Source: Cylindrospermopsis raciborskii Cr2010
GTDB taxonomy: Bacteria > Cyanobacteriota > Cyanobacteriia > Cyanobacteriales > Nostocaceae
Length of the DNA stretch: 32,000 nucleotides
Assembly (NCBI RefSeq): GCF_003367075.2
Contig: NZ_CP065936.1
Coordinates: forward strand, 1,980,001-2,012,000
Reading direction: 5' to 3'
Shown here: one piece after another, positions 1,593-21,109 of the stretch
How the letters are laid out: each line of letters starts with the position of its first letter
How positions within the stretch are numbered: position 1 is the first letter of the stretch
Position numbers and translations under genes: made by a program
The notes under the pieces: model-generated
Databases searched by the model: none
What the model was told of the DNA's origin: nothing
Seen by the model: the letters and a program-made list of their open reading frames with translations, nothing else

Positions 1593-1660
1593 AATTACGA
1601 ATTACGAATTACGAATTACGAATTACAAATTACGAATTACGAATTACGAATTACGAATTA
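1593..1660. repeat. (AATTACG)n heptamer tandem tract, about 9.7 units, one variant unit (AATTACA)
   Basis: Read directly from the sequence. It lies 59 nt downstream of the helicase stop. In minus-strand sense it reads (CGTAATT)n, which carries TAA in all three frames. Confidence 0.97.
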
Positions 1661-1718
1661 TTTTATCCCATAAAATATATGAACAGCACCATGGGGGAGA
1701 TTCCCAAAAATGATCAGT

Positions 1719-4700
1719 TTACAAACTCCCTAAAACCTCCAACCCCTCACCCCAATTCTCATTATACCGTAGAGTTAAAACTTGATAACTAGCATTGTAC
1801 CTGAGATTATCCCGCTCAATTTTATCTTGCTTTTTCTGCTCAGGACTATCATGAACTGAACCATCACAAAAGAGAGCGATCGCATCTTCCTTATACACAA
1901 AATCTGGTTTACAATTGGCTTCAGGAATAAATTCCTGTGCAGCATCAGGTAGTTTATACCCCCGTTGATAAATCTCCTGTAACACTACTCGTTCAAAATC
2001 AGAGTTTGGATCTGTTTGAGAAAGCAACTTTTGATATTTTGCACTGCGGTCTATATCTGATATTTCTACTGTACTTGCTTGCAGTTCATCTAGCAAAGAT
2101 TTAATCAGATGACGATTAATTAACGCATGGTCAAATTGATTCCTATAGGAAAGTAAACACTCATAACAAGCTTGCACACAGGTATCCTTGGGTTCTAAGA
2201 AATGACAGATATCTAAAGCAGCATTGGCGATTTTCTCAAAAGCATTTGCTTGCTGTAGTAGCTGAGATAAAACTCCTGCACCACCTTCTGATGCTTCCCA
2301 AAATAGTAAATATTTTCCTTCACCTAATCTTTCTGAGTCCAGTTCATCTGGTTCTAATTTATAAACTGCTTGAATTGCTGTTTCTAGGGTATATTGGAGT
2401 GTGCCAATAAAACCTTCTTTGTTATCTTGGGGAACATTCAAGGGTTCGATGACAAGAATATTGCAAGTGTCTTCTACCATTAAATTTACTTCCCTATGTA
2501 ACCTTTCTGGAGGTAAATTTGTTTTTGTGTCTCCCCAGATACCTGTTTTCACATCTAATTTAAATCCCCGTTCCTCGGTGTTTCTCTTCAGTCCTCTGTT
2601 AATACGCCAAATAGTTGCTGTAGCTCCATAGGTTAATTTGAATAGTGGTGTATTATCTGCTGCTAAAACTGTAGCTGATTCTTGTTTTTGAAGCGCATAA
2701 CGGAAATGGGTGGTAGTATTATAACCATATTTCAATCTTTCTTCTTCATCGCAGGTAATACGTTCTCTTCTGTGACTAAATACTGTCTCCATTGACAACA
2801 CACGATTTAATTTAGCTAGGTTTTGAGAACTATCAGGTTTAATTTCTACACCGCAATTTTCACAGTTATTCAGTGCTGTATCTAGATGGAAATAACCACA
2901 GTTAAAACAACAGCTTACTCGTTGATATTGACTTTCAATTCCCCCCACAGGTACTTTGGTTTTTGACACCATAAATTTACTACCTTCATAGTAAATAATA
3001 TTACTGGGTGCAAATTCCCGTAAGGCCACAACACGAGGACGAGAGATAAATTCCCCCCCATCATTGGTGGGTACGAATGCTCGTACAGGTAAGCGGGGAA
3101 AGTTAAATCCTGGTAAAAATCCTTCAGCAGCAAAGTAGCGATAGGGATAAAATTCAAATTCGCTATTACTTTTACCTTGGTTGTGTCCTACCAGTAAATC
3201 TATTTGCCGTTCTGCTTCTACTCTTTGAGCTTTAGCGTTTTTTAGTTCTTCCTCTGTAACATGACCAGCAGCATAACGACTGATTATGATGTTAGCCTGA
3301 TCTTTTTGTTTGACTGCACTATCATAAAGTTTACGCCAGCGATCGCATTTTCTATCAAAGGTATTCAATGCATTTTCTAGGGTAAATTCTAGCCCATGTA
3401 CAGAATACCAAGAGGCTTTTTGTAGATCACTTTGACAGAAAGGATCTGCAAGTATTGACTGAGTAGCTTTTAGACATTCAGCTAATTTTGTACGACTAAG
3501 TGTTAATTGTTCACGTACACTATCTTTTAGGGGATAACCAGCAACATCTAAATCAAGAATTTTGTTCATTGAGTCGTCTAAATAAACTCCTGTATGTGCT
3601 AACCAAATTGAATACACATGAGATTCAACTAAATCTTGATTTGCTAATTCTAATTTAGGGGGAGCAACAGCACCAGCTACCATTTGCTGTTGACGTTGGA
3701 AAAAATATTGATCATGTCCACTACCAATTGCAGCATAAGTTATTACTAAAGCCTCCTGACCACTCCTCCCCGCACGTCCGCTACGTTGGGCATAATTTGC
3801 AGGACTGGGGGGAACATTACGTAAGTGAACCACGCTTAAGTCAGAAATATCTATACCTAATTCCATTGTGGGAGAACAGAATAAACTCGCTAATTCTCCT
3901 TTTCTAAATCTTTCTTCCCGTTCTTGACGAGCCTGAGTTTTAACTTGTCCTGTGTGTTCTCGCCCTTCCATTGCTTGAATTTTTTGGGCGCTAGTTTGAT
4001 AAAACTCTTGAAAGAATCTGTTAACAGGTATTTTTACATCTTCTTGACCCTGTAAGCGCTTAGACGAAAGAGGATCAGGGGGAATTTCAGTTAATATTGT
4101 AAATTTCCATACCAAGGAACTAATTTGTAATTGAATACCATTTTTAGTAATTAAAAAACCAGCATCAGCTAATGCAGTAATGAAGGTACTAATTAAAGTA
4201 TTGTACTCTGTTTCTGTTAACAATTCACTGCGTAGTGACCAAGCTTTAGGAGAACGTAAAAACCTTCCAATTTTACTTTTAGTTGTTAATTTTACCGGAG
4301 CTTTGTGTTGAGATTTTGCTTTATAATTACCATCAATAGTGGCAAATTTGGCAAAATGCCATTTCTCATTTTCATCAAATACCCAAGGTTCTTTAATTGT
4401 TTGAAAAACATCTCTAAGTAAAGAATCCTTATTATCAGATTGAAGTAATCTAGCGTCTATTGCTAATTCTCGACGGAGATGATTTAATAAAGCTAAAGCA
4501 GCAGTCAATCTCTCTTGAGGAGTTGCTTGTAATAAAACTGGATGACGGTGTTTATTCCAAATATCTTTATTTGTACAAATTTCCTCTAATCCATCATATT
4601 CAATTACCAAAAGTCCACACTGTTCTAAATTAGGTTGAACAATACGCCATCCTCTGCGTAAGTCTTCATAAAGACGATATTCAATTAAGTCTTGAAAAGC

Positions 4701-6794
4701 CTTTTCATTGCGTGTTTTACCTTTCCCAAATTCTGCCTTTTCTTTAGCATAATCTTTTTGAGATATTCCCATTTGTTTAATAACTTCACCCACTAATTCA
4801 CTATGAGTAAGTTTTCCTTTACTTTGCAATGCACCTAACAAAGCAGCACGTAAAAAACTGGTTTGCACAAAATCATTAAAATGCCCGGCTTGTAATGAGG
4901 CATCCTGGCGATTATCGGTAAAACTGAGAATTTTGGCAGCTTGTGCTTTTTCACCTGTGAAAACTTGTTTGAGACGGCTTACAGTGGATAAACAGAGGAG
5001 GGTGGTAGCGGTACTTCTACCTTCACTACTCAAGCGCGAAAGTTTAGTAAATTCGTTTTTATTTCCATCATGAACCACACCACAATTTAAACACACGCGA
5101 AATGGTCTAGGAACAAACCAACAAGTTGTTCCTTGTAATAGGGAAGTTGTAACTTTTCCGTTGGGGAGAATTTGTAATTTTTGGGGAATGAATTTAGCAT
5201 AATCTTTTCCAGGAACTCGTCCGTTCTTTTTGGTTTCGGTAAACCAGGAGTCAGGAAGTCTTTCTTCGTCTTTATAAGGATCCCAAAGTCCTAGTTCATC
5301 TAAGGTAAGATAACCAGCTTTTGTATCAGCATATTCAGGATTCATATCCAATGATGTGGGGAGTTGGGGAAGGACTACTTGTTTATCCTCATTGTAATGA
5401 ATAACATAATAATCATGTCCGCATTCCCGACAAAAGACGAGGGGATAAAGTAAACGTTCTTCTGTGGTGGTATATTGTCCTTCCAGGGTGAGGAAGCGTT
5501 TTTCGGGAGTTTCAATAGTAGAGTAAACGCTACCACCTTGGGAGATAAATTGATGAAGTCGAAATGCTAAACCTTTAACTTTACTTCCCCATAAAAACAT
5601 CTGTTTAAGGAAGTCTAAACAAGTGTGGTGAGAAAGTTGAGTTTCATCAGCTAATTTTTCTGCAGCATTTTCTAAACTTATAGGTGTTCTCCTGACAAGA
5701 TGACCTTGTTTATCTTCTAAACCAAAGGTCATTTCTATCCAATGACTTAGAGGATGGTTTTGGAAGTTCTCTAATGTTTGTTCTGGTTCTGGTGGTAAAC
5801 CTTGATCTATACTTTCTCCCAGTTCTGTAATGGTAGGTTGAGGACTTTTAATGGAACGTTCTAAAGTTTCGTCAATGACGTTATCAGGTTTAATTTTAAC
5901 ACCAAATAATTTACTTGCCACATCTGCAACTACTTGACGACGTTGTGCGCGTGTTCCTTCTGTGGACATGGTAGCGCTTGTTCCAATACATAATAATTGG
6001 TAATTATTTCCCCATGCTGCAATTTTTCCACAGCGTTGACGTAATTTTCTAATTAATATTGCCACATCTGCACCTTGTCTACCTCTATAGGTATGCAGTT
6101 CATCTAATACGAGAAATTTTAATTCTGGAGAAGCAACGAGTTTTTCTTCTTGGGTGCGGGAAAGCATTAATTCCAGCATCACGTAGTTGGTTAATAATAT
6201 GTGGGGTGGGTTATTTTGAATTTCTATTTTTGTGCTTAAATTTTCTTGTCCAGTATATTTAGCAACCCGAATATGACTATTAGGAACGTTGTTAAGAAAT
6301 TTATTTAATTCTTCTTCCTGGGAGTTAATCAGGGCGTTCATGGGATATACTAAAATTGCCCTAACTCCTTGAATTTCTGGATGACGCAGTAAGTCATCAA
6401 AAATGGGGACAACATAAGTCATGCTTTTGCCTGAACCTGTACCTGTTGTTAATACATAAGGTTCTTGTTTTTTAGCAGTTTCAAAAGCTTGTTTTTGGTG
6501 ATAATGGAAATTAAAAGGATGACCATTTTTAGAGAAGTATTGTGTACAGTCAGGATGGAGAATACCGTTTTTAACTAATTCATTAACTGTTGCACCAGGA
6601 CGATATTTAGGATTTAATTGTACTAAGGGATTTGTCCAGAGTTGTCCTTTTTCTAGTTCTTGATTGACAAATTGTTGTACTCTAGGATCACGAATTTTTA
6701 AGAAACTTTCTATATATCGACGATAATCGCCTATAATTTGATTACGGAAATTGAATATATCGAGATAATTCGTAATTCGTAATTCGTAATTCAT
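1719..6794 (-). CDS. drmA: DEAD/DEAH-box helicase with DUF1998-type Zn-binding region and a C-terminal DUF559/Vsr-like endonuclease-like tail (DISARM DrmA+DrmB-like fusion)
   Basis: Helicase motifs: Walker A LTTGTGSGKSMTYVVP, DExH FLVLDELHTY, motif III GTSATM, helicase-C/motif VI ANYAQRSGRAGRSGQ. Internal CxxC pairs: CRECGHDYY and CLNCGVVH. DUF1998-like block: YPYRYFAAEGFLPGFNFPR, CCFNCGYFH..NNCENCG, CYECLLSYRNQFDH. C-terminal tail: CKPDFVY..ALFCDGSVHD..DKIERDNLR..YQVLTLRY. The symbol is inferred from domain content and locus architecture only. Confidence 0.8.
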   Translation of the reverse strand: MNYELRITNYLDIFNFRNQIIGDYRRYIESFLKIRDPRVQQFVNQELEKGQLWTNPLVQLNPKYRPGATVNELVKNGILHPDCTQYFSKNGHPFNFHYHQKQAFETAKKQEPYVLTTGTGSGKSMTYVVPIFDDLLRHPEIQGVRAILVYPMNALINSQEEELNKFLNNVPNSHIRVAKYTGQENLSTKIEIQNNPPHILLTNYVMLELMLSRTQEEKLVASPELKFLVLDELHTYRGRQGADVAILIRKLRQRCGKIAAWGNNYQLLCIGTSATMSTEGTRAQRRQVVADVASKLFGVKIKPDNVIDETLERSIKSPQPTITELGESIDQGLPPEPEQTLENFQNHPLSHWIEMTFGLEDKQGHLVRRTPISLENAAEKLADETQLSHHTCLDFLKQMFLWGSKVKGLAFRLHQFISQGGSVYSTIETPEKRFLTLEGQYTTTEERLLYPLVFCRECGHDYYVIHYNEDKQVVLPQLPTSLDMNPEYADTKAGYLTLDELGLWDPYKDEERLPDSWFTETKKNGRVPGKDYAKFIPQKLQILPNGKVTTSLLQGTTCWFVPRPFRVCLNCGVVHDGNKNEFTKLSRLSSEGRSTATTLLCLSTVSRLKQVFTGEKAQAAKILSFTDNRQDASLQAGHFNDFVQTSFLRAALLGALQSKGKLTHSELVGEVIKQMGISQKDYAKEKAEFGKGKTRNEKAFQDLIEYRLYEDLRRGWRIVQPNLEQCGLLVIEYDGLEEICTNKDIWNKHRHPVLLQATPQERLTAALALLNHLRRELAIDARLLQSDNKDSLLRDVFQTIKEPWVFDENEKWHFAKFATIDGNYKAKSQHKAPVKLTTKSKIGRFLRSPKAWSLRSELLTETEYNTLISTFITALADAGFLITKNGIQLQISSLVWKFTILTEIPPDPLSSKRLQGQEDVKIPVNRFFQEFYQTSAQKIQAMEGREHTGQVKTQARQEREERFRKGELASLFCSPTMELGIDISDLSVVHLRNVPPSPANYAQRSGRAGRSGQEALVITYAAIGSGHDQYFFQRQQQMVAGAVAPPKLELANQDLVESHVYSIWLAHTGVYLDDSMNKILDLDVAGYPLKDSVREQLTLSRTKLAECLKATQSILADPFCQSDLQKASWYSVHGLEFTLENALNTFDRKCDRWRKLYDSAVKQKDQANIIISRYAAGHVTEEELKNAKAQRVEAERQIDLLVGHNQGKSNSEFEFYPYRYFAAEGFLPGFNFPRLPVRAFVPTNDGGEFISRPRVVALREFAPSNIIYYEGSKFMVSKTKVPVGGIESQYQRVSCCFNCGYFHLDTALNNCENCGVEIKPDSSQNLAKLNRVLSMETVFSHRRERITCDEEERLKYGYNTTTHFRYALQKQESATVLAADNTPLFKLTYGATATIWRINRGLKRNTEERGFKLDVKTGIWGDTKTNLPPERLHREVNLMVEDTCNILVIEPLNVPQDNKEGFIGTLQYTLETAIQAVYKLEPDELDSERLGEGKYLLFWEASEGGAGVLSQLLQQANAFEKIANAALDICHFLEPKDTCVQACYECLLSYRNQFDHALINRHLIKSLLDELQASTVEISDIDRSAKYQKLLSQTDPNSDFERVVLQEIYQRGYKLPDAAQEFIPEANCKPDFVYKEDAIALFCDGSVHDSPEQKKQDKIERDNLRYNASYQVLTLRYNENWGEGLEVLGSL

Positions 6795-7086
6795 AATTCG
6801 TAATTGTGGAAGGTTGGGGTGTGCGTCCTAAACGTTGATCTATATATGCTAATAATTGGTTGGTAAAGGTTTGTGTACAGGTGTCAGAGTTAAAGATTTC
6901 TGTGATGTCTTTATCATCCCATTCTTGGGGAATATGGGTGAAAATTAAATCAAGTTGTTCTGGGGGGAGTTCAGCAATATTTGTACAGTCAACTAATGCT
7001 AATTTTTGTCCCATGAGGGTACTAATTGATAATATTGCTGCTTCTGGTTGTTGGATGAGTTCTTGTAGTTTGACTGGTATTTTCAT
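6742..7086 (-). CDS. hypothetical protein (114 aa); its last ~20 residues are encoded by the heptamer tract
   Basis: ORF track entry. It overlaps the helicase start by 53 nt in a different frame. The C-terminus TITNYELRITNYELSRYIQFP is repeat-derived. I recognise no family. Confidence 0.45.
   Translation of the reverse strand: MKIPVKLQELIQQPEAAILSISTLMGQKLALVDCTNIAELPPEQLDLIFTHIPQEWDDKDITEIFNSDTCTQTFTNQLLAYIDQRLGRTPQPSTITNYELRITNYELSRYIQFP
6767..6805. repeat. heptamer tract, (AATTACG)n in minus-strand sense, about 5.5 units, one variant unit AATTATG
   Basis: Read directly. It spans the 3' end of the 114-aa ORF and the 5' end of the helicase ORF. The variant unit supplies the helicase ATG (6794-6792). 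Confidence 0.97.
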
Positions 7087-7110
7087 AATGTATAATTTTT
7101 AATTAATAAC

Positions 7111-7452
7111 TTAAAATTCTTGAGCAATAATAATTAAAATCGCTGATTTTACAGGACTAATTTTAGTGTGAATGATATCCCAAATAATCTCATCTTCTAA
7201 AGAGAAGTACGCATGAACTAAAATATCTCGTAATCCGGCAATTTTGCGCCATTCAATATCTGGATATTTATTTCTTATTTCTGGGGGAATTTGTTTAACT
7301 GATTCTCCAATAACCTGTAAATTTCTAATTACCGCATCAAATCTTAATTCATCAGCAAAAAAACTCCGTTCATCTAATCCTTGAGTATAACGGAGAATTT
7401 TATCACAACTAATTAAAATATCATCACAATAAAGTTTTAAGCTACGCGACAT
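7111..7452 (-). CDS. hepT: HEPN/DUF86-family toxin (HepT-like)
   Basis: Family-typical start MSRSLKLYCDDIL, then DAVIRNLQVIGESVKQIP and the RX4H motif in AGLRDILVHAYF. The ATG at 7452 overlaps the upstream MNT stop by 11 nt. The ORF track start at 7461 adds MLF. Confidence 0.85.
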   Translation of the reverse strand: MSRSLKLYCDDILISCDKILRYTQGLDERSFFADELRFDAVIRNLQVIGESVKQIPPEIRNKYPDIEWRKIAGLRDILVHAYFSLEDEIIWDIIHTKISPVKSAILIIIAQEF

Positions 7453-7732
7453 AAATAGCATCCTTTTCTACAGCATCAATAATTTGAGGTTTCAACATTT
7501 TTTTCGTGACTAAATCAACGGATAAAGATAAGTTATCTTCTAAGAAAAATTTTAAGTCCATATATTCATCAAAGGTAACTTTACCTTGAAATTCTACTAA
7601 TAAATCAATGTCGCTAGTAGTTTTTGCTTCATCTCTTGCATAAGAACCAAATAAAGCTAAGGAAGTTACACCATAACTTTTTATGGTGGTTAAGTTCTGT
7701 TTGAGAAAGTTAATTAAATATTCTCTGTTCAT
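7442..7732 (-). CDS. mntA: minimal nucleotidyltransferase antitoxin (MntA-like)
   Basis: Nucleotidyltransferase signature LFGSYARDE..SDIDLLVEF. 96 aa, translationally coupled to the downstream HEPN gene. Confidence 0.85.
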   Translation of the reverse strand: MNREYLINFLKQNLTTIKSYGVTSLALFGSYARDEAKTTSDIDLLVEFQGKVTFDEYMDLKFFLEDNLSLSVDLVTKKMLKPQIIDAVEKDAIYVA

Positions 7733-7768
7733 AGTTTTTAATTTTGTTATAAGTTTCTCCTAAATTTA

Positions 7769-7993
7769 TTAATCTTCTGCTATTCCACGGGAATCATAAA
7801 CTGCTTGTAAACAATCTTGAAGATCATCACCTTGCCATTTACCAACATGGCGTAAAATTGATTTACCTGAACCTAGACGTTGAGGAGGTTTTGCTTTTTT
7901 CATTTTCATGTTTTTTACCATCTTTAGCAATTCTGCTATTTCTGCTTCTGTCATGGTTTCAATTTCTGCAACGAGTTCTTCTTTAAATGTCAT
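7769..7993 (-). CDS. small hypothetical protein, antitoxin-like (DUF2281-like N-terminus?)
   Basis: 74 aa. LVAEIETMTEAEIAELLKMVKNMK resembles small cyanobacterial antitoxin-type proteins, and the C-terminal VGKWQGDDLQDCLQAVYDSR is a motif I have seen in such proteins. There is no adjacent PIN-type partner. Confidence 0.45.
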   Translation of the reverse strand: MTFKEELVAEIETMTEAEIAELLKMVKNMKMKKAKPPQRLGSGKSILRHVGKWQGDDLQDCLQAVYDSRGIAED

Positions 7994-8028
7994 TTTTGTT
8001 TCTCCTAGTTTTACTAAACTTAAAAATT

Positions 8029-8259
8029 GTCTGAATCAGGATTTCCAGGATTTGAGGATTTTCAGGATGTTATTGATAATTTATTGGTGAATATCTAAGA
8101 TTATAAAATACAATTATCATTATGGTCAACTCATAAAAGCAGATAATATAAAACTTTACATCTCATTTATTAAATATCATCCCCAAATCTCTATTTTTCA
8201 TAGACAATAAAACACTTACATCCTGTACATCCTCTAATCCTGGATATCCTGATTCAGAC
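8029..8259. mobile_element. MITE-like element, 231 bp, with 41-bp terminal inverted repeats
   Basis: The left end GTCTGAATCAGGATTTCCAGGATTTGAGGATTTTCAGGATG (8029-8069) matches the reverse complement of 8219-8259 at 37 of 41 positions. The core is AT-rich and non-coding. A partial end copy (CTGTACATCCTAATTCCGACAAAA) lies at about 13013-13037. Confidence 0.75.
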
Positions 8260-8264
8260 AAAAT

Positions 8265-8311
8265 AATTACGAATTACGAATTACGAATTACGAATTACGA
8301 ATTACGAATTA
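8265..8311. repeat. (AATTACG)n heptamer tract, about 6.5 units
   Basis: Read directly. In minus-strand sense it is (CGTAATT)n, and the methylase stop codon TAA (8304-8302) and its last codons (..GAT AAT TCG TAA) lie inside the tract. Confidence 0.97.
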
Positions 8312-11300
8312 TCCCACGCTTCTAATACTAATCTTTGGGTTCTATATTCTCCATATTGTTTGATTTCATTGTTCTTTAAAACTCTAAATGTTTCACTAGG
8401 AAAATCTACACCATATACATCCGCAGGATCTAATATATATCTCAGTTCATCACGGGTTAAACCATAAAGTTTAGCGTAATATGCGTCTAATTCTGCTCTG
8501 ATTAATGCACGTCTGTTAGGATTCCAAATGAATGGAGGGAGTTGAGAATCAAAATTCGGGAGTTGTAAGTCAAGTGCAAAGGGTTGCATATCCCAGGATG
8601 TGTATACTAATTCTAATACGCGGGGGGCAATATATTCTATGTCTTTTTCTGTGTATCTTTCTGGGGGAATAACTGGAAGTTGTTTGACTATGAAAAAACT
8701 AAAGCTAGTTCCTCCCAATTTTTGACGAGTGACAAAATCAAAAACTAAACTATTAACATTAGCTAGAAATAAACAATAAAATTGAGGTTTATTTTGTTTT
8801 AACAAAACCAATGGTGCTTTATGATTTACAGCAACTTTAGGTAATAAGCTAAAAATTGCAGTACGTTCATCAGTTGAACGACAAATATCTCTAAAACCTA
8901 ACAACCAATTTTTATCCCATCTCCCACTTAACTTATTTTCAACTTCCTTTTTATCTACCCAATAACGAGGTTTAATAGTAAAAGATAAATCGCTTTTTTC
9001 ATCATCTGTTAAATCACGAGTATCACCATTATCTGTATAAGTCGCCCAACGGTGATCAAATTGATGAAACATTTTCGCTTCATATAATGGGACTTTCAGA
9101 TCCGGGACTTCTTGAAGAAGTCCCGGATCTTGGGTGTGAAATAACCCGCTATCATTAGCCATATCAAACATACGCATAAACGAAAAATTCCAAGGGTTAA
9201 TTCCCGTTTTCTCATTTTCCAAAACTGGCACATTTTGATATATCTTTTTAGTTAATTCCGCATCTTTGCTAGTTCTAAAAACTGGACAAGTGAGAGTATT
9301 AGGATTAATTAATGCTATATCTTGCGGTGCAAGTTGAAACAACCGCGTTTGATTTTCTAATTGTTTAGGTTGAGTTAAGAAAAAAGCAAAATTACCCCGT
9401 TTTATTGCTTGACTAGTCATAGCAAGTAAAGAAAATTTATAACTGCGATGTACAGAAGTGAATATTGCTTCTCTATTTTCAAAATCATACAAACTTGCTA
9501 AATTCTGCTTTTGAATTAAATCACCAAAAAACCGTTTACAAGTATCATCAGTAGCAATACCAGTGGGAACAATTACCCCAACCCTACCATTACTATTAAT
9601 TAACCTTCTCATAGTTTCTGCAAACACAGCATAAGTATTAATATCACCCACAGCAGTTAACGGAAATCTCCCCGACTCCCGAATAAACCTACTTTGTGCT
9701 TCCGCATCATGTTTAGCATCCTCAAAAGCTTGCGCCAATGCTGGATTTTTCTTAGGTAATTCCTTAATCAACTTTTCCCGTGCTGCTTTATTTTGTGCAT
9801 TAGCAATTTCTAAACTGCGAGAGGCGAAAAACTCCTTTTCTTGTAACTTAATTCTCTCCCAAGGAGGATTACCCAAAACACAACTAAAACCACCTTCTTC
9901 AAAAACTTCTGGAAACTCTAAAGGCCAGTGAAAGAAATTATATTTACTAGCTAAATTATTCGCAGCATCAATTAACCCTTGTAATTCATAATTCGTAATT
10001 CGTAATTCGTAATTAGATTGAGAATTGAGGATTTTTTGGACAATTTCACGTTTTAACTCTTCTAGTTTTGCTGTAGTTGGTAAAAGTTGTAAATTATGTT
10101 CAGTCAAATACATAAAAAACGCCGCAGTCCATAAATTACAAGCTGCTTTTTTCAACCACCAATTATTATCTAAAAGATTATCCTGATATTTTTTCTCTTT
10201 TTCTTTAACTTCCTCAGGTGTATTTTCAGAAAAGTTCGCTAATTCTTGCCATAATTTAGCAAAGATGTAATTATGATCAGCAGAAGTTTCAAAAATAGAT
10301 AATTGTCCTTGACTGTCTTTTTCTTTTTTATTCCGCTTTTTCAAATTTGTAGATAATTTCTTATCATCTCCTGTGACAGGTGTAAAAGCATTATCTGGAA
10401 TGCCATCATTTAAACAATCTAAATCTAATACCCCCACCAAAGAATTACCGCATTTAATTCTATGGTCTAAAAAATTCAATGGTTTATCAGTAGAAAACCC
10501 TTCTATCCATAAAGCCACCTTACACAAATCTACCGCCAAAGGGTTTAAATCTACGCCATAAATACAATTTTGAATTACATCTCTAATGGCAATTCTTAAA
10601 TATTCTGGTGCTGGTTCTGCTTCCCCAGTTCTAATTTTCGCTAATTCCTTACCTATGCGTCGTGCTGCTGCTAATAAAAAATGTCCAGAACCACAAGCGG
10701 GATCTATGACTTTAATACTTAATAGAGATAATTCGTAATTCGTAATTCGTAATGCTCCCTTCGGGAGAGCTTCGCTAACGTAATTCGTAATTCGTAATGC
10801 TCCCTTCGGGAGAGCTTCGCTAACGTAATTCGTAATTTCAGACTCCGTATTATTACCCGACTCTCGACTCCCGACTCTCAACTCCCTATTATTCGACTCC
10901 CGTAATTTTTCTTCTATTACTGGTTCTAAAGCTGTTTTAATTAACTGTTGGACAAGTTGGGGAGGTGTGTAATAAGAACCTGTGGTTTTTCTATCAGTTC
11001 CAAAAATTAAGTTAAATTCATAAATTCCTTGGCTGTTATTAACTTGTGGGTGAAAATCTAATAAACTTTCATACACACTACCCAACTCTTCCACATCTAA
11101 AGCAGCATAATTTACCCGTCGTAATTGTCCCTTATCTTCATACAAAGATAAACAACGAATGGCAGTTAATAAATCATAATTATCAATACCACAATCATCT
11201 AAATCTGTCAATGTTTGTGAACCAAACAAACCACCATTTAAAGGCGATAAACCTAAAATTCTACCGCGCCAATCTTCATCAAATAATTTAAAAGTGACTC

Positions 11301-12426
11301 GTAAACCTTGCCAAATATCTTGAAAACCTTCCCGACGATAGCGGGGATGTTCCGCTAATTCTCTTAATCTTTCAATGCTGTAATATTTAAGATAGATTCT
11401 CGCTTTTTCTGCGTCTTCTCCTACCAATAATAAATTACGGGATTCTGCCACCATTAAGAATAAGAGACGATAAATTAATCTTAATAATTGACGATAATAA
11501 ATTAATTCATAATTCGTAATATTTCCTTCGGAAACCCTACGCGAACGTAATTCGTAATTATCCGAGTATCTTTGGCGGAGATTTTCACTATCACGATGTT
11601 GTAAAAAACCATTACCTAGATGCACCAAGGCTTTTTCTACCCCATCCCGCAGTCTGTCGCGTACTCTTCCCCCTTGCTGTAAACTCTCTTGATGGTAATA
11701 TTCTAACCAGCATTTATCCGCATCATCCGCAGTTTCTGGTAAGCGCGAACGGTGGAAAAGCCTATAAAATAAACCAAATTCAGCAAATTTTTCGCCATTA
11801 AGAATCTGCTCTAAGTCAAATTCGATATAAGTAAGGCGAGTCATCAAAGACGAGTCACGTAATAACCGCCAACGAAAACCATTAGTAGTGATAGCCCAAA
11901 GATGCTCAGTCTTGTTGAGATAGTCTTGTACTAAAGCGTGTGCTGATAATCGAGGTGTACCACTAGGAGGACGTTTATCAATATCCAGACGACAACCAAT
12001 AATGTGGATCGGGGGATAATTCGTAATTCGTAATGCTCCCTTCGGGAGAGCTTCGCTAACGTAATTCGTAATTGAAGAGTCGGATGGTAATACTGCACGA
12101 TGGGAGATAGCATAGGTTTGTTCTTCCACTACCTCAGCTTTCGGGGTATATACGGGGATATAACCAAGACTACGTAACAAAGGAACTGCCCACATTTCAC
12201 GGGTAACGCTAGTAGCAGTATCTTCAGCGTTTAACCTTTCTAATTGACGTTGAAATGCGACCCAATAAGACTTAACATCACCCCAAGCGATCGCAATTTC
12301 ATCTTCAAGCTTATCAGTTTTAGATAACCCAAAATCTGATGGTGTTTGTCCTTTGATATTACCTGTTAATAGTTCAGTGGTAATATCAGGTGTTAATAGG
12401 TTGCCTTCAAATTGAATACCAATCAT
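8302..12426 (-). CDS. drmMI: large N6-adenine DNA methyltransferase, Eco57I/type IIG-like (DISARM DrmMI-like)
   Basis: SAM-binding motif I VIDPACGSGHFLLAA and catalytic motif IV VLGNPPWERIK. Size about 1,370 aa. I call the start at MIGIQFEGNLL (ATG 12426). The ORF track start at 12537 only extends through the all-frames-open heptamer tract into the upstream gene. The gene carries four in-frame repeat insertions, listed separately. Confidence 0.85.
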   Translation of the reverse strand: MIGIQFEGNLLTPDITTELLTGNIKGQTPSDFGLSKTDKLEDEIAIAWGDVKSYWVAFQRQLERLNAEDTATSVTREMWAVPLLRSLGYIPVYTPKAEVVEEQTYAISHRAVLPSDSSITNYVSEALPKGALRITNYPPIHIIGCRLDIDKRPPSGTPRLSAHALVQDYLNKTEHLWAITTNGFRWRLLRDSSLMTRLTYIEFDLEQILNGEKFAEFGLFYRLFHRSRLPETADDADKCWLEYYHQESLQQGGRVRDRLRDGVEKALVHLGNGFLQHRDSENLRQRYSDNYELRSRRVSEGNITNYELIYYRQLLRLIYRLLFLMVAESRNLLLVGEDAEKARIYLKYYSIERLRELAEHPRYRREGFQDIWQGLRVTFKLFDEDWRGRILGLSPLNGGLFGSQTLTDLDDCGIDNYDLLTAIRCLSLYEDKGQLRRVNYAALDVEELGSVYESLLDFHPQVNNSQGIYEFNLIFGTDRKTTGSYYTPPQLVQQLIKTALEPVIEEKLRESNNRELRVGSRESGNNTESEITNYVSEALPKGALRITNYVSEALPKGALRITNYELSLLSIKVIDPACGSGHFLLAAARRIGKELAKIRTGEAEPAPEYLRIAIRDVIQNCIYGVDLNPLAVDLCKVALWIEGFSTDKPLNFLDHRIKCGNSLVGVLDLDCLNDGIPDNAFTPVTGDDKKLSTNLKKRNKKEKDSQGQLSIFETSADHNYIFAKLWQELANFSENTPEEVKEKEKKYQDNLLDNNWWLKKAACNLWTAAFFMYLTEHNLQLLPTTAKLEELKREIVQKILNSQSNYELRITNYELQGLIDAANNLASKYNFFHWPLEFPEVFEEGGFSCVLGNPPWERIKLQEKEFFASRSLEIANAQNKAAREKLIKELPKKNPALAQAFEDAKHDAEAQSRFIRESGRFPLTAVGDINTYAVFAETMRRLINSNGRVGVIVPTGIATDDTCKRFFGDLIQKQNLASLYDFENREAIFTSVHRSYKFSLLAMTSQAIKRGNFAFFLTQPKQLENQTRLFQLAPQDIALINPNTLTCPVFRTSKDAELTKKIYQNVPVLENEKTGINPWNFSFMRMFDMANDSGLFHTQDPGLLQEVPDLKVPLYEAKMFHQFDHRWATYTDNGDTRDLTDDEKSDLSFTIKPRYWVDKKEVENKLSGRWDKNWLLGFRDICRSTDERTAIFSLLPKVAVNHKAPLVLLKQNKPQFYCLFLANVNSLVFDFVTRQKLGGTSFSFFIVKQLPVIPPERYTEKDIEYIAPRVLELVYTSWDMQPFALDLQLPNFDSQLPPFIWNPNRRALIRAELDAYYAKLYGLTRDELRYILDPADVYGVDFPSETFRVLKNNEIKQYGEYRTQRLVLEAWDNS
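9981..10015. repeat. in-frame heptamer insertion inside the methylase (encodes SNYELRITNYELQ)
   Basis: Plus strand gtaattcataattcgtaattcgtaattcgtaatt, about 5 units. Confidence 0.9.
10730..10907. repeat. composite in-frame insertion inside the methylase: heptamers, two copies of a 27-nt hairpin mini-element, and a second heptamer family (GGGAGTC/T)
   Basis: Identical 27-mers gctcccttcgggagagcttcgctaacg at 10754-10780 and 10799-10825 (45-nt period), flanked by aattcgt units. A cgactcy tract lies at 10857-10886 and again at 10894-10907. Translation: RESNNRELRVGSRESGNNTESEITNYVSEALPKGALRITNYVSEALPKGALRITNYELS, ending a few residues before MTase motif I. Confidence 0.9.
11504..11559. repeat. composite in-frame insertion inside the methylase: heptamers plus a variant 27-nt hairpin element
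   Basis: aattcataattcgtaat + atttccttcggaaaccctacgcgaacg (stem TTTCC/GGAAA) + taattcgtaatt. Encodes NYELRSRRVSEGNITNYEL. Confidence 0.85.
12018..12073. repeat. composite in-frame insertion inside the methylase: heptamers plus the 27-nt hairpin element
   Basis: aattcgtaattcgtaat + gctcccttcgggagagcttcgctaacg (12035-12061, identical to the two copies near 10.8 kb) + taattcgtaatt. Encodes ITNYVSEALPKGALRITNY. Confidence 0.9.
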
Positions 12427-12432
12427 AGTTTT

Positions 12433-12492
12433 AATTCGTAATTCGTAATTCGTAATTCGTAATTCGTAATTCGTAATTCGTAATTCGTAATT
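12433..12492. repeat. heptamer tract, (AATTACG)n in minus-strand sense, 8 full units
   Basis: Read directly. It fills the gap between the four-helix-bundle gene stop (12493-12491) and the methylase ATG (12426). Confidence 0.97.
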
Positions 12493-12889
12493 ATTTTTCT
12501 TTGAGTTTTTTGGTAGAAGCGACCAAGATTTTCCCAATTTCGTTAGCTTCTTGGAGAAGAGAAGTAAATTTTGGTTTACTCACCAACTCTGATTCTATTA
12601 ATATTTCTAACCAATATTGAGTTTCTCTAGCTTCTTTAAGAGCTATTTCTAATTTATGAATAAAGTCTTTATCAGATTGAGCAGATTGAGATTCTCTAAC
12701 ATTTGCACCAATGGAAGTACCAGAACGAAGTAATTGTTTAGATATTGTCCGATAAACTCCTGATTTTTCATCAAGAAAGTAACAAGCCTTAATAATTCTA
12801 ATAGCAAATTGTTTTGTTCTATCTGTAATCGTGATATGATTGTTGGTTTTGATATTTACATTTGCATTTGTGTTTGTCACCTTTAACAT
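12491..12889 (-). CDS. four-helix-bundle protein (23S rRNA intervening-sequence protein family, PF05635-like)
   Basis: FAIRIIKACYFL...LLRSGTSIGANVRESQSAQSDKDFIHKLEIALKEARETQYWLEILIES matches the family pattern (..SIGANI.E...R.S.KDF..L.IA..E..ET.YWL.L). Confidence 0.8.
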   Translation of the reverse strand: MLKVTNTNANVNIKTNNHITITDRTKQFAIRIIKACYFLDEKSGVYRTISKQLLRSGTSIGANVRESQSAQSDKDFIHKLEIALKEARETQYWLEILIESELVSKPKFTSLLQEANEIGKILVASTKKLKEK

Positions 12890-12910
12890 CCTCCCTTGCT
12901 TCTTCTTTCT

Positions 12911-12970
12911 TAAATTACGAATTACGAATTACGAATTACGAATTACCAATTACGAATTACGAATTACGAA
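12911..12970. repeat. (AATTACG)n heptamer tract, about 8.5 units, one variant unit (AATTACC)
   Basis: Read directly. It lies between the SNF2 gene stop (13038) and the four-helix-bundle gene start (12889). Its orientation is inverted relative to the 12433-12492 tract. Confidence 0.97.
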
Positions 12971-13037
12971 TTCAGTTTTCATGACAATTTTGGTAACGGG
13001 TAATTAATAATTCTGTACATCCTAATTCCGACAAAAA

Positions 13038-15932
13038 TTATAAACTATTTTTACGTTTCCCTGGTTGTAAAATGTACACACCTAATAAATCCATCGGTAA
13101 TTGTGGTGTAACCTTAACATCCACCTCTTTAGTAATTTTCCTCACTCGTTGATGCGATTCATATAAAGAAAACGATCGCTCTTTGGCAAACACTTCTAAA
13201 TCTGCTTTTAACTCATCAAAAGAATTTAAAAAATCCTCAATTTCCTGTTTAGGATTAACAGCATTCCCCACAGGGTTAGCTTGTTCCAAAAAAGCTTTTG
13301 CTTCCAGTGGTGCTAACCAAACCGGGTTAGATGGTGGACCCGTAAACCCAACTACTACACATTCTTCTCCTAATAGTTCATAATTTCGCTTCTCAGAATT
13401 TCCACTTTCACTTAACTTACGATTACTAACTTTCTGTTTTAATAAATGTCGCAATCTAAATAACAATAAGGTAGTCCGTTTACTCACAGTATTCGTAATT
13501 GTAAAACCACATCTAGCAACTAAATCATTCTGATTATTCAGTAAAGCTACCTCTAAAATGTGCCGTGCTAAACCTTCAACCAAAAGATGATTTCGCCCTA
13601 CATATTCCACCCCCTCCGGTGCAGGAGTAGTGAAAGTAATTAGACGTTTTTCATTACCTAAAACGGGTTGTAAAAAACTGGGAATTGACGGTAATAACCA
13701 TGCTCGCTTTTTTTCAATCAAACCACAATTTAACTTTTCACAAGCATTTTTAACAAACCTTTCTACATCTTTTTCATTACCTAAAATTTCATCAGATTCT
13801 AATAACTCCTGTTCAACTTCTGTAGGTTTAATTGCCTTTTGGGCAAAACGAGTCCGACTGATCTTCTCCCTTTCTACGGCCTTATCCCATTGTTTATGCA
13901 CCTGTTCAACAGCAGATCCATCATCTAACAAATCCAATAAAGATAACTGTTGTGCATCCGTACTTTTATCAAATAAAGACTTAAACACCGCTTCCGAAAC
14001 AGTGATACTATCCACTGGCACTGGAACAGTAATTCCCAGAGTTTTATGTATTTGTACTGCTTTGCGAATTAAAACCTCTAAAACCGCCCCATCTACAGGA
14101 TTATCTTGACCATAAAGTAAACAACTTTTCACCTTTTCTGCTATTTGTCCATAACGGTCAATTCTCCCTTCTCTTTGTTCTAAACGGTTGGGATTCCAAG
14201 GTAAATCATAATGAATAACCGCACTAAAATGAGATTGTAAATTTATCCCTTCACTCAAACAATCAGTTGCCACTAATATCCTTTGAGGATAGGATTTTAA
14301 CTCGTTTAATTTTACTTCTCTCTCATCTTCTGACTGTTCCCCATGAATGGCAATTACCCGAATTTGAGAACCTTTCTTTTCTAACTTCTGCTTTAAATTT
14401 TCAGCCACATAATTAGCTGTATCAACATAACGACACCAGATAATTGGATGATGATTATTTGCTAAAAGATTCTGCACATAAATAGCACAAGCTTGTAATT
14501 TTTGGTCTTTATTACCCTGTAATTTTTCCGCAGCTTGAATAAAACCCCGCAGTTTGCGTTTATCAACATCTTTATAACTCCGCTGTCCCTGTTCTACGAC
14601 TACAGTGGGTGCAGCATCTACCGCTTGTTCCAAGTCCGTAGGATCATAAACATAAGAACTGAATAATTCGTAATTATTATTTTCCGACTCCCACATTTCC
14701 CCCAACTCCCGACTCCCAACTCCCAACTCCCGATTTAAACTACGATTTAAAGTAGAGATCGCAGCAGCAGGGGAAGACATCACACACCGAATTAAAGCCA
14801 AAGCTGACCAATAACGCCCCTGACGTTGGCCATAAGTCATATCTACCGTAGTATTTCTTACTAACCCCCGTGCAAAATTATAAACTTCCTCAAATAGTTC
14901 TTTATATTCCTTAGATAATTTATAGGGTTCCTCATCAGATTGACGTTCTGGAAAAGGTGTTTGATTACCCAACCACAATTTTACATCTGCACGTCGTCGT
15001 TGGATAAAATGACCAGCTAAATTATCTCGTTCTGTTTCTGTGAGTTTATCCAAAGTCAAATCAGCAAACTCTGCTTTTAATAAACCCAATAAAGATAAAA
15101 AAGATTCCTCAATTCCACTATGGGGAGTAGCAGTGAGTAATAATAAATGACGGGATCTTTTTTCAGCTATTTCGGTAATTAATTGATGTCGTTGTTGTTG
15201 GGATGTAGTCTTATTACTAGCACGGGTACAAGTATGAGCTTCATCTACAATCACAAAATCTGGGCAATGTTCAATAAAACTGGCTTTTCGCCGTTCTGAT
15301 TTGGCATAGTCTAAACTAACAATTATATGACGATAATAACTAAAAATATGAGAACCATTAGGTATTGCCCTTTCTAATTTAGAAGCTGTACCAGAACGAA
15401 CTACCACAGCATCAATATGGAATTTTTCTCTTAATTCTTGTTGCCATTGATCACATAAATGGGGAGGACACAATACAGCAATTCTGGCAATTTCTCCCCT
15501 GTCTAATAATTCTCTGACAATTAAACCAGCTTCAATAGTTTTACCAATGCCCACATCATCAGCAATTAATAATCTGACTGTTTCTAACCTTAAAGCCATT
15601 AACAATGGTACTAATTGATAGGGACGAGGACGCAAGGACAACCTACCCAAACAGCGAAAAGGACCCGCCCCACTCCGTAATAAATGCCTTGCAGCATCCA
15701 TCAATAATAAAGCTGCACTGTGGTCTTTTATACTGTCAGCAGTAGGTTTAGGAAAGGTAGCTGGTTCTAGGGTTTCTAGGTTTAAGTGCCGAAAAATACC
15801 AATAATTTCCTCTTCGTTGCCACTCAGGGGACAAAGGCGGATTAAGTCTGGGTTTTCATCTGGTAATACTACCCATTGCCGACTACGACAGCTGACAATG
15901 AAACCAGGGCTATAATTTAATGTATCTGTCAT
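13038..15932 (-). CDS. drmD: SNF2-family helicase (DISARM DrmD-like)
   Basis: Motif I LIADDVGIGKTIEAG, motif II FVIVDEAHTC, motif III LLLLTATPHSG, and helicase-C LVATDCLSEGINLQ / WNPNRLEQREGRIDRYGQ. 964 aa. It is the first gene of the minus-strand train. Confidence 0.85.
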   Translation of the reverse strand: MTDTLNYSPGFIVSCRSRQWVVLPDENPDLIRLCPLSGNEEEIIGIFRHLNLETLEPATFPKPTADSIKDHSAALLLMDAARHLLRSGAGPFRCLGRLSLRPRPYQLVPLLMALRLETVRLLIADDVGIGKTIEAGLIVRELLDRGEIARIAVLCPPHLCDQWQQELREKFHIDAVVVRSGTASKLERAIPNGSHIFSYYRHIIVSLDYAKSERRKASFIEHCPDFVIVDEAHTCTRASNKTTSQQQRHQLITEIAEKRSRHLLLLTATPHSGIEESFLSLLGLLKAEFADLTLDKLTETERDNLAGHFIQRRRADVKLWLGNQTPFPERQSDEEPYKLSKEYKELFEEVYNFARGLVRNTTVDMTYGQRQGRYWSALALIRCVMSSPAAAISTLNRSLNRELGVGSRELGEMWESENNNYELFSSYVYDPTDLEQAVDAAPTVVVEQGQRSYKDVDKRKLRGFIQAAEKLQGNKDQKLQACAIYVQNLLANNHHPIIWCRYVDTANYVAENLKQKLEKKGSQIRVIAIHGEQSEDEREVKLNELKSYPQRILVATDCLSEGINLQSHFSAVIHYDLPWNPNRLEQREGRIDRYGQIAEKVKSCLLYGQDNPVDGAVLEVLIRKAVQIHKTLGITVPVPVDSITVSEAVFKSLFDKSTDAQQLSLLDLLDDGSAVEQVHKQWDKAVEREKISRTRFAQKAIKPTEVEQELLESDEILGNEKDVERFVKNACEKLNCGLIEKKRAWLLPSIPSFLQPVLGNEKRLITFTTPAPEGVEYVGRNHLLVEGLARHILEVALLNNQNDLVARCGFTITNTVSKRTTLLLFRLRHLLKQKVSNRKLSESGNSEKRNYELLGEECVVVGFTGPPSNPVWLAPLEAKAFLEQANPVGNAVNPKQEIEDFLNSFDELKADLEVFAKERSFSLYESHQRVRKITKEVDVKVTPQLPMDLLGVYILQPGKRKNSL
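14662..14733. repeat. in-frame composite heptamer insertion inside the SNF2 gene (AATTACG units plus a GGGAGTY tract)
   Basis: aataattcgtaatt (14662-14675) and ccgactccc..cccaactcccgactcccaactcccaactcccga (14684-14733). Encodes NRELGVGSRELGEMWESENNNYELF. Confidence 0.85.
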
Positions 15933-16488: not shown

Positions 16489-16770
16489 TAAAATTCCTGT
16501 CACTTTTTTATCTATACACAACTTAACTATATCATATCCCATCCTGGGTACTTTAACTGGAGTTTAGACTAACAAAATGAGCGATCGCATTTTTTATCAT
16601 AATTCCCATAATAGTGTATATATAAAAATAATCAAATCAAATTCTATTCAATATTCTACCTAATACAAACAATCAGTAAAAAGCTAACTTGAGCGTTAAG
16701 ACTAGTAACTTAATACCCGGAAACCCCTACCACATATAGGAAAATCCTCAATTGGCAAAATTATGAAAAA

Positions 16771-16814
16771 TTTTGTAGAAACCCCTTTACAAAACTAAAC
16801 ATCTGTCTTAATAT
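16771..16814 (+). promoter_or_regulatory. psbA copy 1 promoter: -35 TTTACA (16786-16791), 17-nt spacer, -10 TAATAT (16809-16814), overlapped by an imperfect 9-6-9 palindrome
   Basis: Near-consensus sigma-70 hexamers with 17-nt spacing, about 70 nt upstream of the ATG. Palindrome TTTTGTAgA-N6-TTTACAAAA at 16771-16794. The same arrangement is conserved at all three psbA copies. Confidence 0.6.
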
Positions 16815-16882
16815 AAGTTCATAAAGTAGAAACACCTACCTGAACATACATAAACCTCCGGTTAAACCGCATTTATAAAACC

Positions 16883-17965: not shown

Positions 17966-17987
17966 TAACCAATACTATTAAATGAAA

Positions 17988-18017
17988 AGCTCCTCACCTA
18001 GTGGGGGGCTTTTTTTA
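17988..18017 (+). terminator. rho-independent terminator of psbA copy 1
   Basis: Hairpin GCTCCTCAC-cta-GTGGGGGGC followed by TTTTTTT. Confidence 0.8.
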
Positions 18018-18042
18018 TGGCATATTATTTGAGTAATGCCAT

Positions 18043-18082
18043 GAGTTGAGGGTGTTGGGTTTCGTATTAAACTCAACCTACG
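18043..18082. repeat. small hairpin repeat (GTTGGGTTTC..CTCAACCTAC family), present only in this copy of the psbA-ATPase spacer
   Basis: gagttgagggtgttgggtttcgtattaaactcaacctacg. Related copies lie at 19758-19787 and, degenerate, at 16278-16300. It is absent from the equivalent spacer at 25548-25611. Confidence 0.65.
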
Positions 18083-18158
18083 TTAATCTTATATTTAATT
18101 CCACTGACCCACTTAGAATAAAATCGGTAAGGTTATTTTTTAAAAACTCCTTCTCACC

Positions 18159-19706: not shown

Positions 19707-19735
19707 TCGCGAAGCACTGGGTATGCGAGATCGCC
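19707..19735. repeat. copy-specific small dispersed-repeat insertion just after the ATPase paralog 1 stop
   Basis: tcgcgaagcactgggtatgcgagatcgcc. Its reverse complement resembles the 16454-16488 element (..gatct....tgcttcgc..). The paralogous site (23990-23999) has only ggcgattgcc. Confidence 0.5.
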
Positions 19736-19757
19736 ATTGTTGTTTAAATCATTAATG

Positions 19758-19787
19758 TTGGGTTTCCTAGCGTCAACCCAACCTACA
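19758..19787. repeat. small hairpin repeat with a perfect 8-bp stem: GTTGGGTT-N10-AACCCAAC, followed by CTAC
   Basis: gttgggtttcctagcgtcaacccaacctac. It sits exactly where homology between the two ATPase downstream regions ends. Confidence 0.7.
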
Positions 19788-21079: not shown

Positions 21080-21109
21080 TAATTTAATAACCAATACTGG
21101 TAAATGAAA

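Follow-up and report, generated by a model that had tools for sequence, protein, structure and literature searches.

A probable ARMADA Type I anti-phage operon, with a frameshifted helicase gene, in Cylindrospermopsis raciborskii Cr2010

Which system is encoded by the three very large, collinear minus-strand genes found in a stretch of 32,000 nucleotides of the cyanobacterium Cylindrospermopsis raciborskii Cr2010 (contig NZ_CP065936.1, positions 1,980,001 to 2,012,000; this whole stretch is called the window below), and is that system whole in this strain? A preliminary description, made from the letters alone, had read the genes as a Class 1 DISARM operon of non-canonical architecture, perhaps an undescribed DISARM subtype or a related helicase-methylase system. 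We conclude with high confidence that they form an ARMADA Type I anti-phage operon in the cyanobacterial order armA-armB-armC. ARMADA is a DISARM-related phage-defence system first described in 2025 (Bell et al. 2025, bioRxiv 10.1101/2025.09.15.676423, PMC12458937). The view that this was a helicase-methylase defence operon related to DISARM is thus borne out, both by domain content and by homology to the ArmA, ArmB and ArmC proteins of Escherichia coli; the system itself was already known, because the supposed deviations from DISARM, together with the CxxC pairs of the helicase, are defining characters of ARMADA Type I.

Identity of the three-gene operon

The locus comprises eight open reading frames (ORFs), all on the minus strand and running from 15932 to 1719. 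The three large ones are present where they had been placed: armA (13038-15932, 964 aa), armB (8302-12426, 1374 aa) and the main armC ORF (1719-6794, 1691 aa). Exact matches to their products are found in Cr2010 as UJL32378.1 (ArmA), UJL32376.1 (ArmB) and WP_115539040.1 (the 1691-aa helicase). Our Pfam, PADLOC and NCBIfam scans covered nine proteins, namely the products of the three large genes, of the five small ORFs between them and of the transposase ORF downstream; no PLD-family match was found among these nine by any of the three, which agrees with the earlier statement that the locus has no PLD gene.

In ARMADA, ArmA is defined as a BrxHII/RapA-like SNF2 helicase and ArmB as a PglX-like methyltransferase (PMC12458937). 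The Cr2010 ArmA has Pfam matches to SNF2-rel_dom (1.1e-13) and Helicase_C (1.9e-21), confirming the SNF2 motifs reported for this ORF, with GIGKT at 15537-15551 and DEAH at 15234-15245, and it is matched by the BrxHII model of PADLOC (7.5e-61) and by RapA in the PDB (1e-23). ArmB has the Pfam domains Eco57I (3.6e-22), MmeI_Mtase and N6_Mtase, and both of the N6-adenine methyltransferase motifs that had been noted in it could be located: motif I, DPACGSGHF, at 10678-10704 and motif IV, NPPW, at 9859-9870. It is matched in PADLOC by DrmMI (7e-73) and type IIG models, and in NCBIfam by PglX models at 1e-11 and weaker, under their cut-offs. The start of armB at 12426 (MIGIQFEG), as first given, agrees with a 1374-aa orthologue; a longer ORF call, 8302-12537, starts at a TTG within a repeat array.

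ArmC is described as a YprA-family helicase, closest to the Druantia helicase DruE, and its inserts are a BrxA-like domain that follows RecA1, a beta-barrel zinc module, with two or more CxxC motifs, where RecA2 begins, and a MarR-like domain inside RecA2; a fused OB-CON-DUF1998 region and a C-terminal Vsr-type nuclease, predicted to be active, complete the protein, and the OB region has one zinc-binding insert in Type I, without extra EEP/Vsr domains, whereas it has two in Type II (PMC12458937). In Cr2010 the DEAD (4.6e-24), Helicase_C (9.4e-14) and MZB/DUF1998 (9.6e-07, above the Pfam cut-off; residues 1466-1547, at 2154-2399) domains all fall within one ORF, so that helicase and DUF1998 do share a single polypeptide, as had been claimed; all 28 full-length members of the family have MZB. 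The Walker A motif GTGSGKS lies at 6423-6443, DELH at 6093-6104 and helicase motif VI at 3765-3788. The two extra CxxC pairs noticed between motif III and the helicase-C domain are indeed there, as the pairs CREC (5421-5432) and CLNC (5082-5093) of a putative zinc module; their cysteines are invariant and lie in a beta-rich stretch of the AlphaFold2 (AF2) model. A second zinc module stands in the OB region, between RecA2 and DUF1998, and judging by sequence only it holds a single pair, CFNC...CENC (2853-2909). The family PF27116 appears in the precomputed Pfam lists of some homologues and was absent when we scanned two of them (P0019 and P0023) against Pfam.

The C-terminal tail of ArmC, at about 1722-2012 on the minus strand, had been proposed to be a DUF559/Vsr-type nuclease, and several lines of evidence agree with this. 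Its motifs are KPDF (1899-1910), CDGSVHD (1848-1868) and ERDNL (1803-1817), and ArmC ends directly after the domain. The last 100 residues match Pfam MTES_1575 at E=0.0015, which is under the gathering score; among the 28 relatives, DUF559 is matched by six (best 7.8e-10) and MTES_1575 by four. When 34 diverse tails were aligned, the residues E1601, P1616, Q1620, D1631, F1632, G1645, H1648 and D1657 were invariant and D1644 nearly so, a set that includes residues of catalytic type, and a profile made from this alignment found in the PDB both 3hrl, a DUF559 structure (E=0.007), and 3r3p, a homing endonuclease of Vsr-like type (E=0.16). The AF2 model of the tail has a predicted local distance difference test score (pLDDT) of about 80-90, and its top Foldseek matches among the viral models of BFVD are DUF559 proteins and very-short-patch-repair/mismatch endonucleases, with probability ~1, 100-113 aligned residues and a root-mean-square deviation of 3-4 Å. 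Membership of the tail in the Vsr/DUF559 branch of PD-(D/E)xK nucleases is therefore well supported, and nuclease activity is predicted from its sequence. In the structural comparison suggested in the preliminary description, BFVD placed DUF559/Vsr endonucleases at the top, and the PDB gave no significant match.

We used the ARMADA II and Druantia III genes of E. coli EDL933 as a reference set for membership (blastp and tblastn). Each Cr2010 protein matched solely its counterpart in the validated ARMADA II system, except that the helicase matched DruE too: ArmA at 2e-33 (30% over 420 aa, the alignment starting from residue 5-6 in both proteins), ArmB at 3e-26, and ArmC at 1e-31 plus 1e-30 over 1122 residues. 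A family hidden Markov model (HMM) built from 28 full-length relatives of ArmC gave 381 bits with E. coli ArmC and 292 with DruE, 89 bits apart. Under the name 'ARMADA Type I helicase', Table S1 of the ARMADA report includes QNP30886.1, from C. curvispora GIHE-G1, and UJS04812.1, from C. raciborskii KLL07 (PMC12458937); both share a 90%-identity cluster with the Cr2010 helicase WP_115539040.1. With this architecture, and with cluster-mates already filed in that table, the system is not an undescribed one, as had been suggested it might be. Type II is distinguished by an additional gene, armD, and the order ArmA-ArmB-ArmC is noted for cyanobacteria (PMC12458937). We found no homologue of ArmD (RelE-GajB/UvrD; tblastn with E. 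coli ArmD) or of DruH in the window.

The association of the three genes is also not confined to Cr2010, as the first reading of the locus required. We surveyed linkage in one genome per species and obtained 80 loci, each from a different species and spread over many phyla. In 41 of these the helicase, the SNF2 gene and the methyltransferase gene could all be seen, and most of the remaining ones end at a contig boundary. The order was helicase-SNF2-methyltransferase in 32 loci and SNF2-methyltransferase-helicase, as in Cr2010, in six, all of them cyanobacterial. An exhaustive search with the C-terminal 591 residues of ArmC gave 554 clusters (50% identity) at E<=1e-30, and most of the matches listed are about 1700 aa long and aligned nearly to the C-terminal end of the query.

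Several observations weigh against this assignment, or against an active system of this kind. In pairwise BLAST the helicase scores almost as well against DruE as against ArmC of E. coli, or the reverse, so that the two are told apart by the profile only. Foldseek with the C-terminal model (residues 1400-1691) returned nothing from the PDB at E<=0.001, the notable sub-threshold matches being MrfA (probability 0.97) and PvuRTs1I (0.77), and the BFVD matches of the tail have E-values of only 0.004-0.04. The insert model (residues 285-945) likewise gave no significant match in the PDB, nor did the fold of the putative zinc module; as neither ArmC model gave significant PDB matches, the BrxA-like and MarR-like inserts are unconfirmed. 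In the literature consulted, experimental tests exist for the E. coli Type II system only and for no Type I system. Lastly, armC is frameshifted, which makes activity of the system in Cr2010 doubtful.

The armC frameshift and the state of the system in Cr2010

The 1691-aa polypeptide had been taken for the whole helicase, and this part of the preliminary description has to be corrected: it is a truncated product, and the frameshift in its gene had been missed. Close homologues of ArmC are all about 1780 aa long, the orthologue P0001 having 1786 aa. The 1691-aa ORF is the 3′ part of armC and starts at an ATG within a tract of heptamers, while a 114-aa ORF (6742-7086, minus strand), near-identical to the N-terminus of P0001, is its 5′ fragment; it holds the first 95 armC codons and then runs out of frame to a stop. 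We aligned the junction with two near-identical loci (L001 and L002), one from another C. raciborskii genome and the other a contig from a public sequencing run, and the sole difference was one extra AATTACG unit in Cr2010. This addition of 7 nt, in the tract at 6766-6805 (minus strand), puts the 95 N-terminal codons out of frame.

In all 13 other Cylindrospermopsis/Raphidiopsis sequences of the same protein cluster that we inspected, the tract is shorter, in frame and of one shared length; the Cr2010 allele is therefore peculiar to the strain, or an assembly error. The same 114-aa ORF is also present in one contig assembled from a public run.

What does this mean for the system? To judge from the reading frame, full-length ArmC cannot be made in Cr2010, which leaves two options: a system that is off, or a 1691-aa ArmC whose translation starts at the internal ATG. 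The 95-aa N-terminal extension is found in many cyanobacterial ArmC proteins and is absent from many family members, including all the non-cyanobacterial ones inspected, and the 1691-aa ORF keeps the conserved LDIFNFR segment, at which shorter ArmC proteins begin. Since this segment is retained and many family members do without the extension, an internally initiated ArmC, with all its canonical domains, could possibly be functional.

The strongest rival to an operon that still works is that the locus is ARMADA Type I by descent and an inactivated remnant in Cr2010, the extra 7 nt being a loss of function in a decaying operon; we hold this to be almost as probable as its opposite. It is favoured by the finding of the frameshift in the Cr2010 allele only, among the 14 Cylindrospermopsis/Raphidiopsis sequences inspected, and by the broken armB genes of relatives, which are frameshifted in C. 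curvispora GIHE-G1 and Dolichospermum flos-aquae and destroyed by an ISL3 element in R. curvata NIES-932. The presence of an IS5-family element 240 bp downstream of armC would also fit decay; this element (339-1479, with a transposase ORF at 520-1440) is absent from the otherwise collinear locus L001. Against a remnant stand the full length of armA and armB in Cr2010 and the 1691-aa ORF itself, which has all canonical ArmC domains and, given the many ArmC proteins without the N-terminal extension, could work from its internal start. An ARMADA Type I operon thus remains our reading of the locus, with its activity in this strain in doubt.

AATTACG arrays, inserted genes and the surrounding window

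The heptamer that disrupts armC is not confined to that gene. Counting with a two-unit AATTACG pattern and one mismatch allowed gave 42 matches in the whole window, where 0.05 would be expected; all of them lie within 1593-12968 and none in the region from 13 to 32 kb. Arrays stand at 1593-1660 (9.7 units, antisense, 3′ of armC), 8265-8311 (6.7 units, antisense, at the 3′ end of armB), 12432-12492 (8.7 units, sense, directly 5′ of armB) and 12913-12972 (8.6 units, immediately beyond the 3′ end of armA and antisense to the operon), with further ones at 6766-6805, 9981-10014, 10729-10837 and 12017-12073; heptamer tracts within genes include 6766-6805, 11546-11559 and 12060-12073. Immediately 3′ of each of the three arm genes an array runs antisense; sense arrays lie within armB and armC or shortly before them, so that each arm gene and inserted cassette is bracketed by inverted arrays. 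Such an orientation could matter for RNA processing or recombination.

Related loci in further Cylindrospermopsis/Raphidiopsis genomes and in Sphaerospermopsis and Dolichospermum have the same pattern, which was not seen in the cyanobacterial ARMADA loci of other genera returned by our genome scan. The copy number of AATTACG varies between strains. The heptamer is also common in unrelated metagenome contigs, and (AATTACG)5 arrays are no general marker of ARMADA, since 80 metagenome loci that have such arrays proved to encode no ArmA, ArmB or ArmC. Our search of the literature on the heptamer (short tandemly repeated repetitive, STRR) repeats of Cylindrospermopsis turned up nothing useful.

Repeats alter the coding sequences in more than one way. 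In armB there are in-frame inserts derived from repeats, among them a 45-bp unit present 2.3 times at 10734-10837 (peptide SEALPKGALRITNY), just upstream of motif I, and ArmB length ranges from 1366 to 1402 aa among strains. In armA, a CCCAACT array at 14701-14731 distinguishes 957-aa from 964-aa variants between strains, a difference of exactly 7 aa (21 nt, in frame). Two frameshifts in armB, independent of the one in the Cr2010 armC, lie at AATTACG arrays: that of C. curvispora GIHE-G1 (L087, 5008-5035) at an array of 4 units, where Cr2010 has 2, and that of Dolichospermum flos-aquae CP051207.1 (L085, 5287-5321) inside an array of 5 units. In R. curvata NIES-932 (L086) armB is truncated by the insertion of an ISL3 transposase and not by an array.

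Could the arrays be switches? On this proposal the AATTACG arrays within genes are contingency tracts, in which slipped-strand gain or loss of 7 nt reversibly turns armB or armC on and off. It is supported by three frameshifts that arose independently, each in another genome and at another array, and by the strain-variable copy number and the in-frame 21-nt variation of armA. The length of the armC tract, identical in 13 of 13 other sequences inspected, speaks against it, and this uniformity makes rapid phase variation at that tract unlikely. In addition the tracts are short (2-5 perfect units), polymorphism within a population was not seen (an exact-pattern search of metagenomes for armC tracts of other lengths found none), the heptamer is widespread outside ARMADA, and plain irreversible mutation fits the data equally well. 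Phase variation as the explanation of these tracts is therefore improbable to us, and we would put no more trust in the broader idea that bloom-forming Nostocales (Cylindrospermopsis, Raphidiopsis, Sphaerospermopsis and Dolichospermum) have an ARMADA system whose defence and methylation are phase-variable through in-frame AATTACG arrays. The repeat-associated frameshifts themselves are consistent either with mutational hot spots that inactivate the ARMADA system or with reversible switching.

The three large genes are not immediate neighbours; small genes are inserted at both junctions. Between armA and armB lies a gene for a four-helix-bundle protein of the 23S_rRNA_IVP family (12491-12889, minus strand; PF05635 5.7e-25, TIGR02436 9e-31), the family to which Pfam also assigns Avd, an accessory protein of diversity-generating retroelements. 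This gene occupies the same position in four other loci, two from Cylindrospermopsis (L001 and L087) and one each from Sphaerospermopsis and Dolichospermum, and was not found in the Nostoc and Tolypothrix loci; it may be an accessory gene or cargo. Between armB and armC a cassette at 7111-7993 holds, all on the minus strand, a 74-aa ORF (7769-7993), the MntA nucleotidyltransferase antitoxin (7442-7732; Pfam NTP_transf_2, NCBIfam MntA_antitoxin) and the HepT RNase toxin (7111-7461; Pfam HepT-like, NCBIfam HepT_toxin), with a PADLOC match to PDC-S09. The cargo of this junction varies among cyanobacterial loci (including gaps in L004 and L009-L012): HepT/MntA in Cr2010 and Sphaerospermopsis, a PIN-domain gene in Dolichospermum (L085, 8933-9656) and other ORFs elsewhere. 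The four-helix-bundle gene and the HepT/MntA pair are lineage-specific insertions and not core parts of the system.

By our reading of the sequences at this junction, L009 has a DUF559-like ORF, and the Pseudanabaena locus L012 encodes a helicase of UvrD type whose N-terminus is RelE-like and which matches E. coli ArmD. Matches to ArmD by tblastn (148-343 bits) occur in six loci with a Type I-like helicase, L007, L012, L021, L060, L062 and L070, and because of these the boundary between Type I and Type II may be less sharp by gene content than by helicase clade.

Beyond the operon, the window contains three copies of psbA, encoding D1 (16883-17965 and 19997-21079 on the plus strand, 25664-26746 on the minus strand), and two diverged copies of a gene for a 515-aa AAA-ATPase (18159-19706, plus; 24000-25547, minus). 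These copies (16718-26953) form large inverted repeats, with arms of 1303 nt at 96% identity, which flank a segment with a 5′-nucleotidase gene. A gene for a sodium/bile-acid symporter (SBF), broken into two ORFs that overlap, and a short radical-SAM fragment (22811-23535 and 23672-23977) are probably pseudogenes within this inverted-repeat segment.

Rival identities, proposed mechanism and known systems

Two other identities start from the same protein matches and would change the name of the system altogether. The first is the original one, a Class 1 DISARM of non-canonical build: DrmA and DrmB would be joined in one protein, and the Vsr-type tail would stand in for DrmC. DISARM class 1 (DrmD, DrmMI, DrmA, DrmB, DrmC) does share its first two components, a related SNF2 helicase and an N6-adenine methyltransferase, with this locus, as well as a YprA-family helicase and DUF1998; PADLOC matches ArmA to DrmD at 1.4e-100 and ArmB to DrmMI at the score given above, and DISARM_DrmD is the best match of the SNF2 protein in the curated NCBIfam set. 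That match, however, reaches 366.5 bits against a cut-off of 610, and the helicase also counts against DISARM: PADLOC DruE models match ArmC at 1e-93 to 1e-65 (best 1.7e-93) over most of its length, whereas the best DrmA match is 5.3e-13 and covers residues 966-1036 only, a Helicase_C stretch of about 70 residues. In DISARM class 1, DrmA and DrmB are separate genes, DrmA belongs to another clade and the PLD nuclease DrmC is separate too; in Cr2010 a DruE-like helicase is joined to DUF1998 in one protein, which has a tail of Vsr type. Because the helicase is DruE-like rather than DrmA-like and the DrmD score is under its cut-off, and with the cluster-mates of the helicase filed as ARMADA Type I, a Class 1 DISARM identity is very hard to maintain.

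The second, equally implausible, is a Druantia-type system built on a DruE helicase, with the SNF2 and methyltransferase genes as mere neighbours. The DruE models are the best PADLOC matches of the helicase, Druantia type III (DruH-DruE) is its closest helicase family by HMM and by PDB sequence, and inserts between RecA1 and RecA2 are shared; the best PDB sequence matches of ArmC are two large chains of helicases, 9tu7_Y (2108 aa) and 9wae_A (1970 aa), both probably DruE. DruE has been reported as a helicase-nuclease that acts on phage intermediates containing single-stranded DNA. In type III, however, DruE has a tandem PLD tail, unlike the Vsr-like one here, its partner is DruH, of which the window holds no homologue, and it has no SNF2 or methyltransferase partner, whereas linkage to SNF2 and methyltransferase genes is the rule for the helicase family of Cr2010; the family profile, moreover, favours E. 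coli ArmC over DruE by the 89 bits given above.

Dpd, the 7-deazaguanine modification/restriction system, and BREX were rejected on the matches listed for the nine scanned proteins, which include no DpdA, DpdB or DpdC (curated DpdE scoring ArmA at 214 bits against a cut-off of 500 and DpdJ reaching 61 against 800) and no PglZ, BrxC, BrxL, BrxA or BrxB. The PADLOC model PDLC02853, which is labelled DpdE, matches ArmA end to end (1.4e-196, 653 bits) while the curated DpdE model falls so far short; it is therefore probably an ArmA-type model, which could mislabel ARMADA loci as Dpd.

With the locus read as ARMADA Type I, the system itself adds nothing new, being one more locus in a lineage already catalogued (PMC12458937). 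Interest lies in the armC frameshift and in the disruption of ARMADA genes that recurs in this lineage in association with repeats. The lineage supplies natural Type I alleles: intact (for example in C. raciborskii KLL07), armC-frameshifted, armB-frameshifted and IS-disrupted. Recurrent frameshifts at heptamer arrays in toxic bloom-forming cyanobacteria could bear on phage susceptibility and the methylome at the level of strains. There is also a caution for annotation, as common tools mislabel the locus: PADLOC names ArmA 'DpdE' or 'DrmD' and ArmC 'DruE', and NCBI PGAP labels the truncated 1691-aa ORF an ordinary helicase.

How might such a system work? By analogy with ARMADA II, DISARM, Druantia III and MrfA, we suggest that ArmB would methylate adenine in a host motif, aiding discrimination between self and non-self, and that ArmA may act as a RapA-like translocase or remodeller. 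ArmC would be the effector: it could load on exposed single-stranded or forked phage DNA, translocate as MrfA does under a canopy formed by OB-CON-DUF1998, and cut the unwound phage DNA with its Vsr-type nuclease. Protection would then be direct and non-abortive. In E. coli ARMADA II, where protection is non-abortive, defence needs every one of the four genes, and also the Walker motifs in both ArmA and ArmC and NPPW in ArmB (PMC12458937).

Among the systems not yet compared, BREX resembles the Cr2010 locus in two single components, ArmB being like PglX and ArmA like BrxHII. The MrfA/YprA repair helicase (PDB 6znp) shares the helicase core and MZB/DUF1998 with ArmC (phmmer 8e-27; Foldseek probability 0.97 with the C-terminal model); it differs in its size of about 750 aa, in having neither inserted domains nor a nuclease tail, and in its repair role with MrfB. 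Closer is E. coli ARMADA Type II (ArmABCD; NCTC 12900, and EDL933 z5899-z5902), whose ArmA, ArmB and ArmC are homologous to the Cr2010 proteins and stand in the same ArmA-ArmB-ArmC order. It differs in having ArmD, a RelE-GajB/UvrD fusion, in an ArmC of 2113 aa with extra, inactivated EEP and Vsr domains, where the intact Type I ArmC here has 1786 aa, and in an identity of only about 22-32% to the Cr2010 proteins. Closest of all is ARMADA Type I. The Cr2010 copy has its own peculiarities, namely the 7-nt frameshift of armC, the four-helix-bundle (IVP) gene, the HepT/MntA pair and the AATTACG arrays, which the main text of the ARMADA report does not mention (PMC12458937). With Type I it shares the three genes without ArmD, the reversed, cyanobacterial gene order, and a YprA-type helicase in which the CxxC pairs of a putative zinc module stand where RecA2 begins, one further CxxC module lies in the OB region, and DUF1998 and a Vsr-type tail are fused to the helicase.

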